Below are positions 200 through 39,273 of a stretch of DNA of 44,309 bases, piece by piece. Numbering within the stretch: position 1 is the stretch's first letter; each line of letters begins with the position of its first letter. Origin of the DNA: a virus. Taxonomy: Duplodnaviria; Heunggongvirae; Uroviricota; Caudoviricetes. The notes under the pieces were generated by a model, which ran no database searches, was not told where the DNA came from, and saw only the letters and a list, made by a program, of their open reading frames with translations. The translations under genes and the position numbers were made by a program. The DNA is taken from IMG/VR virus record IMGVR_UViG_2684622542_000005. One strand, 5' to 3'.

Positions 200-519
200 T
201 CCCGTTACCTTCCGGGATCAAAATTTGGCTGGTTGCCGGTATCACCGATATGAGAAATGGCTTCAACGGCCTGGCTGCGAAAGTACAGACGGCGCTGAAA
301 GACGATCCCATGTCCGGCCATGTTTTCATTTTCCGGGGCCGCAGCGGCAGTCAGGTTAAACTGCTGTGGTCCACCAGTGACGGACTGTGCCTCCTGACCA
401 AACGGCTGGAGCGTGGGCGCTTCGCCTGGCCGTCAGCCCGTGATGGCAAAGTGTTCCTTACACAGGCGCAGCTGGCGATGCTGCTGGAAGGTATCGACTG
501 GCGACATATAACCAGGTGA
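196..519 (+). CDS. tnpB: IS66-family TnpB (orf2), C-terminus probably clipped by prophage insertion
   Basis: 107 aa MIPLPSGIKIWLVAGITDMRNGFNGL...FIFRGRSGSQVKLLW matches the conserved IS66 Orf2 pattern; the last residues (ITR*) run into the prophage left-end repeat. Confidence 0.85.
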   Translation: MIPLPSGIKIWLVAGITDMRNGFNGLAAKVQTALKDDPMSGHVFIFRGRSGSQVKLLWSTSDGLCLLTKRLERGRFAWPSARDGKVFLTQAQLAMLLEGIDWRHITR

Positions 520-682
520 ATCATTTGATACCGACAAGGGGTTTAGTGAAAGGAGGTGAAATCACCTGTAAGATACTGAAATAAAACAGGTGATGGCTAG
601 ATGTGCGGATAAGGTCTATTTGATACCGATTGTGCAATAATTAGTCATTTATTATAAAATCGGCAACTCATTTGATACTGTG
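519..682. repeat. Prophage left end (attL-like): three putative transposase-binding repeats
   Basis: CATTTGATACCGA (522-534), CTATTTGATACCGAT (616-630), CTCATTTGATACTG (667-680); the reverse complement recurs three times at the right end. Confidence 0.55.
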
Positions 683-752
683 GTTTTAGTCTTTTAAGGC
701 GTTCCAAACAATGCGAAATACTCGATATAGTGCAAAATGCGGGCTAATGCTA

Positions 753-1298
753 TTAACCCGCTTTTGGTTCTACCGCGTTAGATTTGCGACTTCTCTCAGT
801 TTCTTCCAAAATCTCTCTGACGCGTTCGTCAGACATACCTTCAAGCTGTAATGCAGCTATTCTTTTCCTTCCTTCTAAGCGGATTAGATCTTGATTTTCA
901 GGCTCTAACAACCGAGCTAAGTACTTGGCTCCATTCAGAACCAAATTTTTCGATAGCTGCTCTAAGTCTTTTTCATCAAGTGCGCTGATAATCGTCATAA
1001 TTATCTTCTTGCTTTCATCTTGATTTTCCTTGATCTCACACCGATTCACTTGTGATGCATCACTGAATCCACATAGCCACTCAACACTTACTCCTTCGAT
1101 AGACGCAATCTGAAGGGCGACACTTAAGGATGGCTCAGTGCCACGAGACAGATAATTGTTTAGTGTTGAAAATGAAAGCCCCCAATCTCTTGCTGCAGCT
1201 CTGACGCTGCGGGAGCCAATCAGCCTTTTCAGACGCTCAGCAATGCTTTCTTTTCTACCACCAGGAAAAGAAAGAGATGTTGTTGTTTGCTTGTTCAT
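753..1298 (-). CDS. Prophage repressor (Mu c-like position, HTH DNA-binding)
   Basis: 181 aa, leftward gene at the left end, divergent from the early operon; N-terminal helix-turn-helix (SVRAAARDWGLSFSTLNNYL), coiled-coil-like C-terminus. Confidence 0.7.
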   Translation of the reverse strand: MNKQTTTSLSFPGGRKESIAERLKRLIGSRSVRAAARDWGLSFSTLNNYLSRGTEPSLSVALQIASIEGVSVEWLCGFSDASQVNRCEIKENQDESKKIIMTIISALDEKDLEQLSKNLVLNGAKYLARLLEPENQDLIRLEGRKRIAALQLEGMSDERVREILEETERSRKSNAVEPKAG

Positions 1299-1578
1299 TT
1301 TCTTTTCTTCCTATCAATTTGANNNNNNNNNNNNNNNNNNNNNNNNNNNNNNNNNNNNNNNNNNNNNNNNNNNNNNNNNNNNNNNNNNNNNNNNNNNNNN
1401 NNNNNNNNNNNNNNNNNNNNNNNNNNNNNNNNNNNNNNNNNNNNNNNNNNNNNNNNNNNNNNNNNNNNNNNNNNNNNNNNNNNNNNNNNNNNNNNNNNNN
1501 NNNNNNNNNNNNNNNNNNNNNNNNNNNNNNNNNNNNNNNNNNNNNNNNNNNNNNNNNNNNNNNNNNNNNNNNNNNNNN

Positions 1579-1719
1579 CGTAAAGCTGGCGTGGGTCAGA
1601 ACAATCTGTACAACGCGGTATACCGCCATGTTCCCAAGTATGAGGGGATTATCGCGGAATGCCTGGGGGTGCCGCCCGAGGAGATTTGGCCCAGCCGCTA
1701 CATTCGTAAGGTCGCGTAA
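1579..1719 (+). CDS. ner: Ner-like DNA-binding protein, C-terminal part (N-terminus lost in N-run)
   Basis: C-terminal ...GIIAECLGVPPEEIWPSRY resembles the Ner/Nlp family C-terminus; sits immediately upstream of the transposase as in Mu. Confidence 0.7.
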   Translation, partial: RKAGVGQNNLYNAVYRHVPKYEGIIAECLGVPPEEIWPSRYIRKVA

Positions 1720-1721
1720 TT

Positions 1722-38097: not shown

Positions 38098-38119
38098 TCG
38101 ATCGTTTTTGTCGATCGAT
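38098..38119. promoter_or_regulatory. Two GATC-containing TCGATCG heptamers upstream of com/mom
   Basis: TCGATCG at 38098-38104 and 38111-38117, 45-65 bp upstream of the com start in an AT-rich region. Confidence 0.4.
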
Positions 38120-38163
38120 TGAGTGATAAAGATATCAACAACAAAGCAGGAGGTTATGCGGCC

Positions 38164-38364
38164 ATGTATCGAAACATACGGTGCCGACATTGTAACAAGC
38201 TACTGGCACGAGCCAGCTTCAGTTATCTGGAAGTTAAATGTCCGCGCTGTAAAACCCTCAATCAAATCACATCTCAGAGCGCCACAGAGCACCCCACATA
38301 CACAAGGAAATCCTGTCGTGGGGAACAGAAAGCAAGTTACATCCCGTATCATCAGCACGCCTGA
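38164..38364 (+). CDS. com: Com-like zinc-finger translational regulator of mom
   Basis: [35 protein letters not shown]... parallels Mu Com (CxxC...CxxC, ~62-66 aa); GGAGG upstream. Confidence 0.75.
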
Positions 38365-39055
38365 ACTTATTCACTATAACGACAATATCGTCGGTTATGG
38401 CTCCCGTGAGTTACGGGTTGAGACAATAAGTTGCTGGCTGGCCCGGCTGGTCGTCGTCAATAAACATTACAGCCATCGTTTCGTAAATAATTCCTACCTT
38501 CATCTGGGCATATTTTCAGAACGGGAGCTGGTTGGCGTAATGCAATGGGGTTATGCCCTTAATCCAAACAATGGTGCACGCGTCGTAACTGGCACGCAGA
38601 ACCGCGAATATATGGAGCTTAACCGGTTATGGCTGCATGACTGTATGCCGAGAAACTCCGAATCAAGGGCAATCAGTTACGCGCTCAAACTAATCAGACA
38701 ACTTTATCCGCAGGTGCAGTGGGTTCAGTCGTTTGCAGATGAGCGTTGTGGCTGTCTTGGTGTCGTGTACCAGGCAAGCAATTTTGATTATGTAGGCAGT
38801 CATGAAACAACATTCTATGAACTTGATGGCGAGTGGTATCACGAGATTTGCAAGAATGCAATCAAACGAGGAGGACAGCGAGGTGAACATCTGCGGGCTA
38901 ATATCGACAGAGCCAGTGTTCATAAATTCCGTCAGTTTCGTTACATCCGGTTTCTGGACAAGAGAGCCAGAAAACGCCTTAACACAAAGCTATTCAAAGT
39001 CCAGCCTTACCCAAAACCACAAACAGTTAAAACTGGTTTGAAAGAGAGTGAATGA
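38318..39055 (+). CDS. mom: Mom-like DNA modification protein
   Basis: Frame overlaps the 3' end of com as in Mu; no in-frame ATG after com, so GTG 38318 is proposed (~245 aa); last gene before the right end. Confidence 0.65.
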
Positions 39056-39100
39056 ACGCTTAAAAACTCATTCTAAAACTCAAAAGAAAAGCGCCGATTT

Positions 39101-39170
39101 AGTATCAAATAAGTTGCGTATCGGCGTTTTTCAGCGGTATCAAATGAAATGCAAATCGGTATCAAAAAAA
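39101..39170. repeat. Prophage right end (attR-like): three inverted transposase-binding repeats
   Basis: AGTATCAAATA (39101-39111), CGGTATCAAATGA (39136-39148), CGGTATCAAA (39157-39166) are reverse complements of the left-end motifs. Confidence 0.55.
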
Positions 39171-39273
39171 TCGCCGCGCTATAGACAGCCTAAGCGGCTG
39201 CTGACCTCCCTGACCATGCTGTAAATCTCTTTATCCTGGTTGTCACAGAATAAGCCCGGTAAAATACGGGCTT

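Follow-up and report, generated by a model that had tools for sequence, protein, structure and literature searches.

The 44,309-nt stretch of DNA recorded as IMG/VR virus record IMGVR_UViG_2684622542_000005 (the window, meaning the whole of that stretch) carries a Mu-like transposable element whose transposase, A, is the main subject here together with the element's ends. With considerable confidence, this element can be read as an Sp18-family prophage, probably functional, whose transposition interrupted tnpB of an ISEc8 in a plasmid-like context, with six short repeats near its ends as the predicted sites of A. An initial sequence-only reading of the window had described an apparently complete Mu-like prophage of a lineage distinct from Mu, and this description is supported by 50 open genes, full synteny and an A protein only 23% identical to MuA. 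The lineage is indeed distinct from Mu, but it was already known, as the Sp18 family.

Element Boundaries and Target-Site Duplication

The sequence matching ISEc8 stops exactly at position 506 and picks up again at 39184, while the matches to members of the family begin at window position 507 (509 where base 508 differs) and stop at 39183. Between these points lies an element closed by a 28-nt terminal inverted repeat (507-534 paired with 39156-39183), which extends past the outermost repeat by 17 bp at either tip and whose first bases are kept as T(A/G)TAACC... in the left-end alignment. The sequence-only reading had set the ends at 517 and 39175, which the ISEc8 match, the homologues and the inverted repeat place 10 and 8 bp too far in. 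It had also held that homologues extending past the repeats would speak against its interpretation. They do extend past them, by 17 bp, but this merely moves the boundaries by the distances just given, and the interpretation stands.

An intact ISEc8 (copy L004) reads ...GACTGGCGACAGCC..., and the window junctions (marked by a slash) read ...GGCGACA/TATAACC... on the left and ...GCGCTATA/GACAGCC... on the right. Since the empty ISEc8 site holds GACA once and the window holds it on both sides of the element, GACA has been duplicated and a 5-bp duplication is impossible. A 5-bp duplication with shifted ends was nevertheless considered and rejected, as no 5-mer is common to both window junctions and 12 copies agree on 4 bp. 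This junction between ISEc8 and the prophage is absent from complete E. coli genomes and from PLSDB plasmids.

The duplication measures 4 bp in all 12 paired copies. Besides GACA in the window copy, it reads GTAC in DLI.5a, AACA in strain 600029, CGGG in AST198, GTCT in O157 H2495, GGTT in 00_3230, TAAA in Sakai Sp18, CATC in LC727881, AGAG in LC727895, TTCA in a sister lineage described below (L047), and AGAA and AACA in two IMG genomes. A scan of IMG/VR with both end sequences returned contig fragments only, from which two additional left/right pairs were matched. As a control, the identical procedure was applied to genuine Mu in E. coli W, where it recovered TG...CA ends and the 5-bp duplication GCCGC. 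The depositors of LC727881 and LC727895 annotate a 4-bp "duplication due to insertion of Mu" at the same ends. The paper accompanying these two records does not discuss the 4-bp duplication, a search of the literature for such a duplication in Mu-like phages found none in the text, and the papers on SfMu, PluMu and the Pseudomonas saltoviruses hold no relevant end data.

The distinct flanks form a small sample (22 left and 24 right), in which G is found at -6 in 14/22 and C at +6 in 15/24, while position 2 of the duplication avoids C and position 3 avoids G. Within the limits of this small sample, these biases suggest a symmetric target preference centred between positions 2 and 3 of the duplication, which would fit an even-numbered stagger.

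The RefSeq feature for Sakai Sp18 (NC_002695.2, 5040971..5079729) omits the first base of the element and runs 5 bp past its right end. Homology and the duplication place Sakai Sp18 at 5040970..5079724, flanked by TAAA.

Six Inward Repeats at the Element Ends

Of seven exact matches to the 8-mer TTTGATAC in the window, six are located no more than 175 nt from an end of the element, three at each end, and all six point inward (524, 619 and 671 on the + strand; 39159, 39137 and 39102 on the - strand). When the repeat is taken as a 10-mer and up to one mismatch is allowed, 12 matches are obtained against 2.5 expected, a number that 0 of 100 shuffles reach. The end repeat is real, far beyond chance. 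It has the form TTTGATAC(C/T)(G/A), with an extended consensus of about TCATTTGATACCGA. The three inverted copies per end proposed by the sequence-only reading are borne out by these counts, at coordinates close to those given then, and alignment with the Mu ends agrees with its statement that the ends differ from those of Mu in sequence, though their architecture is Mu-like.

Nine distinct left ends, belonging to three left-end types, and eight right ends were aligned. The cores of L1, L3, R1 and R3 are unchanged in every aligned end, while the intervening and outer sequence diverges between the three left-end types. The first eight bases of L2, TTTGATAC, are kept in eight of the nine left ends, the remaining one (L008) reading TTTGATATCG, one base off, and the R2 core shows a one-base difference in two of the eight right ends. 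The six repeats are most likely the binding sites of transposase A, because they combine a Mu-like layout and fixed cores with a co-variation with A, described in the next section, and because the ends of the Yersinia phage vB_YpM_5 carry them as well.

A 36-nt stretch between L1 and L2 (556-591), GTGAAATCACCTGTAAGATACTGAAATAAAACAGGT, varies at only 1 of its 36 columns among the nine left ends. It has an inverted partner at 4867-4902, inside the first small gene after B, which is 78% complementary to it and includes a perfect 12-mer, GTGAAATCACCT, and it also holds a short hairpin of its own, CACCTGT...ACAGGTG. This stretch could be a host-factor site or a terminator, or it could be due to chance.

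Transposase A and Its Co-Variation with the Repeats

A can be aligned with MuA over its full length (23% identity, E 1e-13), and its catalytic triad aligns as D308, D374 and E414 with those of MuA and of the integrase of Rous sarcoma virus. Among solved structures, residues 2-62 match the I-alpha domain of MuA (1tns, E 7e-6; PF02316), and residues 362-424 are closer to avian retroviral integrase cores (E about 2e-4) than to the MuA core (E 0.2-0.7). The protein also carries the Mu-transpos_C domain (PF09299, E 2e-17). MuA-type transposases combine an I-alpha domain of winged-helix fold and the end-binding domains I-beta and I-gamma with a DDE core resembling RNase H and the barrel of Mu-transpos_C. 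Its 90%-identity cluster comprises about 7,000 members. The nearest relatives of A among cultured phages are those of Yersinia phages vB_YpM_5 and vB_YpM_6 (82%), Klebsiella prophages (42-57%), Pseudomonas phage VW-6B (47%), Mannheimia phage 3927AP2 (45%), SuMu (43%) and D3112/DMS3-like phages (about 30%). All the cultured-phage transposases listed are nearer to A than MuA is.

A scan of the genome collection with A gave only two loci, which revealed a sister lineage (E. coli VL40, that is L047; L045 and L046; Shigella). In this lineage a different repeat, TTCAAGATAA, stands at the same positions: the motif starts at nt 18 of both ends, R1 and R2 are 22 bp apart, the ends are TA...TA and the duplication, TTCA, has 4 bp. 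Its transposase is 75% identical to that of the window over the full length (74% over the tblastn-aligned segments), with 90-98% identity in the catalytic core (residues 281-440) and only 40-68% in residues 1-200. The A protein of Sp18-type copies, which have the same motif as the window and a different adjacent immunity region, differs almost only in residues 1-40. Because residues 1-40 track the immunity region and residues about 40-200 track the end motif, these comparisons fit a Mu-like division of labour, in which the extreme N-terminus of A would read the operator or enhancer and the next domain the end repeats.

Full-length copies of the sister lineage occur in just 2 of the 5,426 complete E. 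coli genomes. The lineage has neither gin nor the invertible segment, and its lysis module is different.

Proposed Mechanism

It is proposed that the six repeats play the role of L1-L3 and R1-R3 of Mu and are read by the region of A that matches the I-beta and I-gamma domains of MuA (about residues 40-200). A molecules bound at the six sites would pair both ends of the element, assisted by the enhancer-binding N-terminal domain of A, the part that tracks the immunity region, and B, a MuB-like ATPase, would deliver the target DNA. A would then nick after the terminal ...TA-3' on each strand, and the ends would be joined to the target with a 4-bp stagger, so that gap replication or repair would give rise to the 4-bp duplication. 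The ends of the element, its 4-bp duplication, the open genes, the family's mobility, where the motif lies and how well it is kept, and its co-variation with the N-terminal region of A are observations. From the sequence we infer that A binds to the motif and cleaves at this position, and that the window copy is active.

Several observations weigh against this proposal. A terminal TA in place of the CA of Mu raises the question of how efficiently such an end is cleaved. Pfam searches of A did not detect the I-beta domain HTH_Tnp_Mu_2 (PF09039) and found rve below threshold. The co-variation of the motif with a region of A is based on two lineages only, and the literature searched yielded no binding or cleavage experiment for the Sp18 family. 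Moreover, a lesion within the four masked runs of N (ner and the operators, Rz/Rz1, the end of the tube gene and the chaperone, part of the esterase gene) would go unseen. The lengths of these runs differ from those of their counterparts in L002, the copy located in sgrR of strain 600029 (256/252, 260/258, 272/246 and 268/257), so that no frame can be followed across a run. Either masking has altered the lengths or the runs conceal indels; the open reading frame (ORF) of the esterase switches frame across the fourth run.

Integrity, Mobility and Alternative Readings

The 50 unmasked genes are all open and differ by 0-8 residues from those of L002, to which the window aligns without gaps in blocks of 99.3-100% identity. 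Six genes overlap the N-runs (1323-1578, 11395-11654, 24327-24598 and 35358-35625). Since this gaplessly aligning copy lies at a different locus and has its own duplication, the transposition was recent. The lineage as a whole is demonstrably mobile, because related copies occupy many loci, each with its own target duplication. Sp18 itself has been judged intact, it neither circularises nor is inducible with mitomycin C, and packaging of its DNA is efficient (PMC2669165), while Sp18-like phages occupy strain-specific, variable loci in O157 and CC119 strains of Shiga toxin-producing E. coli (STEC) (PMC7430833, PMC10132054). The transposition competence suggested by the sequence-only reading therefore holds at the level of the lineage, with its many loci, separate duplications and packaged Sp18 DNA.

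These data make it improbable that the prophage is a dead remnant, a fixed fossil with Mu-like ends that is unable to transpose or to form particles. The six genes under the N-runs cannot be verified, the tail fibre gene S has no co-oriented assembly gene in the present orientation of the invertible segment, and the failure of mitomycin C to induce Sp18 (PMC2669165) would agree with such a fossil. The 50 intact genes, the perfect duplication, the recent transposition indicated by the copy in sgrR and the efficient packaging of Sp18 DNA (PMC2669165) would not.

A second alternative, which takes the repeats as regulatory sites (operators of the repressor or Ner, host-factor sites or terminators) located near the ends by chance, is highly improbable. 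The motif is found at the right end too, 38 kb away from the immunity region, and stands at the same distance (nt 18) from both termini in inward orientation. These features speak against regulatory sites, even though the left-end copies do lie downstream of the repressor gene and have the conserved hairpin-like sequence (556-591) between L1 and L2. Heteroimmune variants with only 42% repressor identity have the same motif, which changes with the N-terminal region of A, not with the repressor alone. Furthermore, the interval between the repressor gene (c) and ner of L002 (1040-1180; masked in the window, where it corresponds to about 1330-1475) contains two palindromic pairs of other kinds, CCATTGATCCAC...GTGGATCAATAC and TTGATAACTAAGTTTAGTTATCAA, candidate operators unlike the end motif.

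There is almost nothing to be said for placing the element close to Mu or D108, within Muvirus in the strict sense, with TG...CA ends and a 5-bp duplication, the 4 bp resulting from misplaced ends, since the Mu-like synteny, the recognisably Mu-like B, com, mom and many structural genes, and an annotation of Sakai Sp18 whose left end is 1 bp and right end 5 bp out of place are outweighed by window junctions that share no 5-mer, by twelve independent copies that give 4 bp with the same end positions, by the same ends and 4-bp duplications in the depositors' annotation of LC727881 and LC727895, and by an A protein only 23% identical to MuA.

Gene Content and Map

The full Mu gene order, which the sequence-only reading had recognised, agrees with the annotation of the near-identical copy L002 by the Prokaryotic Genome Annotation Pipeline (PGAP) and with Pfam and PHROG matches. 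It runs from the repressor, on the - strand, through ner, A, B, gam, Mor/C, lysis, terminase, portal, head, tail and baseplate genes to the invertible tail-fibre segment, gin, com and mom (Table 1). The window prophage is regarded as a heteroimmune variant because its repressor is 42% identical to that of Sp18 and unrelated to Mu c. In the DLI.5a copy (L001) the invertible segment has the opposite orientation. The gin-com interval is about 3.4 kb long and also holds a small reverse-strand ORF; its cargo module is present in Sp18 as well (ECs_4993-4995). The SASA domain of this cargo is of the sialate O-acetylesterase-like kind, and SASA, DUF6645, DUF1378 and DUF826 domains are typical of the late regions of lambdoid and Shiga toxin phages, with their NanS-p-like esterases.

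Table 1. Features of the prophage and its insertion site, in window coordinates.
Feature	Position	Strand	Remarks
ISEc8 (IS66 family), left part	1..506	+	99-100% match; Pfam TnpB_IS66
tnpB of ISEc8	196-506	+	Interrupted by the prophage
Target-site duplication GACA, left copy	503..506		GACA once in intact ISEc8, on both sides of the element here
Sp18-family Mu-like transposable prophage	507..39183	+	38,677 bp including four N-runs; ends by homology to copies at other loci
Left terminal inverted repeat TATAACCAGGTGAATCATTTGATACCGA	507..534	+	First bases TA; contains L1; partner 39156-39183
L1 core TTTGATACCG	524..533	+	Predicted transposase-binding site; motif starts at nt 18 of element
L2 core TTTGATACCG	619..628	+	nt 113 of element
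L3 core TTTGATACTG	671..680	+	nt 165 of element
Repressor, HTH_3 type	753..1298	-	42% identical to Sp18 repressor; unrelated to Mu c
N-run 1	1323..1578		Covers c-ner intergenic (operator/enhancer) region and ner start; L002 counterpart 252 nt
ner, visible 3' part, HTH_35	1579..1719	+	Mapped from L002 1194-1424
Transposase A, 695 aa	1722..3809	+	MuA I-alpha-like N-terminus, integrase-like DDE core, Mu-transpos_C
B, AAA+ transposition activator	3892..4824	+	48% identical to MuB
Gam, host-nuclease inhibitor	6177..6707	+
Mor/C-family late activator	10084-10506	+
Lysozyme	10578-11078	+
N-run 2	11395..11654		Over Rz/Rz1 spanin genes
Packaging, head and proximal tail genes	12561..24359	+	Including small terminase and tube
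Large terminase	13401-15065	+
Portal	15065-16654	+
F	16638-17969	+
G	18091-18564	+
Protease	18742-19875	+
Major head protein	19875-20822	+
Sheath	22483-23985	+
N-run 3	24327..24598		Over end of tail tube gene and tail assembly chaperone
Tape measure, DNA circularisation protein N, baseplate genes, tail fibre S	25004..33062	+
Invertible tail-fibre (G-like) segment	32703..34035		86-nt inverted repeats 32703-32788 and 33950-34035
Gin-type serine invertase	34106..34678	+	Pfam Resolvase and HTH_7
Cargo absent from Mu	34764..37446	+	SASA-domain esterase/DUF6645 protein, DUF1378, DUF826
Esterase/DUF6645 gene, 684 aa	34764-36829	+	Interrupted by N-run 4 at 35358-35625
com	38164-38364	+
mom	38318-39055	+
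R3 core TTTGATACTA	39100..39109	-	nt 75 from right end
R2 core TTTGATACCG	39135..39144	-	nt 40 from right end; 22 bp from R1
R1 core TTTGATACCG	39157..39166	-	nt 18 from right end, same distance as L1
Target-site duplication GACA, right copy	39184..39187		Same comparison with intact ISEc8
ISEc8 remainder	39184..39732	+	tnpB 3' end and internally deleted tnpC (39274-39732)

A tRNA-like element lies at 17971-18050 on the - strand, antisense to the F-like and G-like head genes and within the 120-nt gap that separates them, a gap that Mu does not have. A local Rfam scan scored it as tRNA with 31 bits (gathering score 29), whereas ARAGORN and an Rfam scan of the whole window returned nothing, and PGAP labels it "tRNA-OTHER" in four related copies. 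Its acceptor, D and T arms fit, and its anticodon region is too long and irregular. In the Sp18-type variant of the element the acceptor stem is kept through two double changes.

Family Distribution and Genetic Context

The window prophage belongs, by sequence, to the family of Sp18 of E. coli O157 Sakai, which was reportedly described in 2001 with the Sakai genome and is common in STEC. The left 816 bp of the element match 233 of 5,426 complete E. coli genomes, and so do the right 1,085 bp, in many different genes and at as many as five places in one genome. Of the 5,426, just 12 match at least 80% of the left-end and repressor region of the window. The window copy is a heteroimmune variant of a well-known and abundant family, and as a prophage the finding is ordinary.

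To the right of the ISEc8 remainder, the C-terminal fragment of a Tn3-family transposase (39755-40231) is followed by senB/tieB (40757-42031) and a gene for a TonB-dependent receptor (42001-44262), both on the - strand. This arrangement matches IncF plasmids and Shigella virulence plasmids at 99.5-99.8%, for which reason the prophage is probably plasmid-borne, next to senB. A plasmid location is rare in the family, being seen in only 1-2 of about 290 places.

Significance

It is quite possible, and is put forward tentatively, that the Sp18-type phages, which are common in E. coli, Shigella, Salmonella and Yersinia, use a Mu-like transpososome of a different geometry that has been left undescribed beyond two GenBank feature lines. 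The features of this geometry, namely TA cleavage termini, sites about 5 bp further in, an integrase-like DD(39)E core and a 4-bp stagger, are very likely; that they are undescribed in the literature is uncertain. If the proposal is correct, the Sp18 family would be a natural comparator for the choice of stagger length and terminal dinucleotide in DDE transposases and integrases. The natural domain swaps in A (residues 1-40 with the immunity region, about 40-200 with the end motif) predict which part of the protein reads which DNA. The exact ends, the duplication and the site map of a very common E. coli mobile element should also help annotation, given the misplaced record of Sakai Sp18. Finally, with a plasmid location next to senB, conjugative spread of a transposable phage is conceivable. 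The prophage itself is ordinary, in that its family is known and near-identical copies are public; its family is routinely called Mu-like and departs from two hallmarks of Mu, the TG...CA ends and the 5-bp duplication, and these mechanistic differences from Mu are under-documented.

Comparison with Known Systems

The closest known systems are Sp18 and the Sp18-like phages of STEC, which share with the window the termini T(A/G)TAACCAGGTGAATCATTTGATACC... and ...GGTATCAAAAAAATCGCCGCGCTATA, the six-site motif, the 4-bp duplication, the gene order, the gin-com cargo and an A protein that is 94% identical. The immunity region is different, with a 42% identical repressor and only 40% identity in residues 1-40 of A, and the left terminus of Sp18 is TG (TG...TA) whereas that of the window is TA (TA...TA). 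The O157-type copies are 76-96% identical to the window over most of their length (76-82% in the tail genes), while the first 26 and the last 100 nt are near-identical.

With Mu and D108 the element shares the synteny from c/ner/A/B to gin/com/mom, a MuB-type ATPase (48%), an I-alpha-like domain in A and three sites per end, with L1 close to the tip, L2 and L3 about 95-160 bp further inward from the tip and a distance of 22 bp between R1 and R2. The left sites of Mu start at nt 6, about 111 and 151, and those of the window at 18, 113 and 165. However, the site is TGNTTCAYTNNAARYRCGAAAR in Mu and TCATTTGATACCGA here, where the Mu consensus is absent; the two are loosely reminiscent of each other, the TCA...CGA half-sites of the window standing one base closer together. 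The sites also begin about 5 bp deeper inside the element, R3 is not inverted, the termini are TA...TA instead of TG...CA and the duplication has 4 bp instead of 5. A is 23% identical to MuA, with a core more similar to retroviral integrases than to MuA, the repressor is unrelated, and the gin-com cargo is an addition.

Hence the element has none of the marks of Muvirus in the strict sense, which are a MuA-orthologous transposase, the 22-bp end consensus of Mu and a 5-bp duplication. In agreement with the saltoviruses, the divergent repressor and ner are followed, near the left end, by the genes for a DDE transposase and, next to it, an AAA+ activator, and the insertion occurs at many unrelated sites with a short target duplication. 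The terminal dinucleotides TG...CA that characterise saltoviruses are missing from the window copy, the Sp18-type copies, the sister lineage and vB_YpM_5.

The Yersinia phages vB_YpM_5 and vB_YpM_6, known as isolated virions, resemble the element in A (82%), in three TTTGATAC copies per end, in the R1-R2 distance of 22 bp and in their TA...TA termini. They differ in host and in the terminal 17 nt (TATGAAGAGG... and ...GCGCGCTTTA), and at the nucleotide level only their A gene matches the window. In the vB_YpM_5 record the joined ends are separated by about 85 nt of non-phage DNA, an indirect hint at the variable host DNA that saltovirus virions carry at both ends of their genome. SuMu, Mannheimia 3927AP2, the Klebsiella prophages and the D3112/DMS3-like phages belong to the same transposase clade, with different hosts and structural modules.

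According to a survey from 2021, every Mu- or B3-like phage reported up to that time had conserved TG-CA ends, with duplications of 5 bp (Mu) or 6 bp (B3); the survey presented the TA-TA ends of transposable prophages of Leptospira as new (PMC8705779). Those prophages have likewise non-canonical TA termini, but their transposase is of the B3/Tn552 type, their duplication has 6 bp and their host is unrelated (PMC8705779). Because that survey regards TG-CA ends as universal (PMC8705779), the Sp18 family appears as an overlooked exception, of which two GenBank entries do record the 4-bp duplication.

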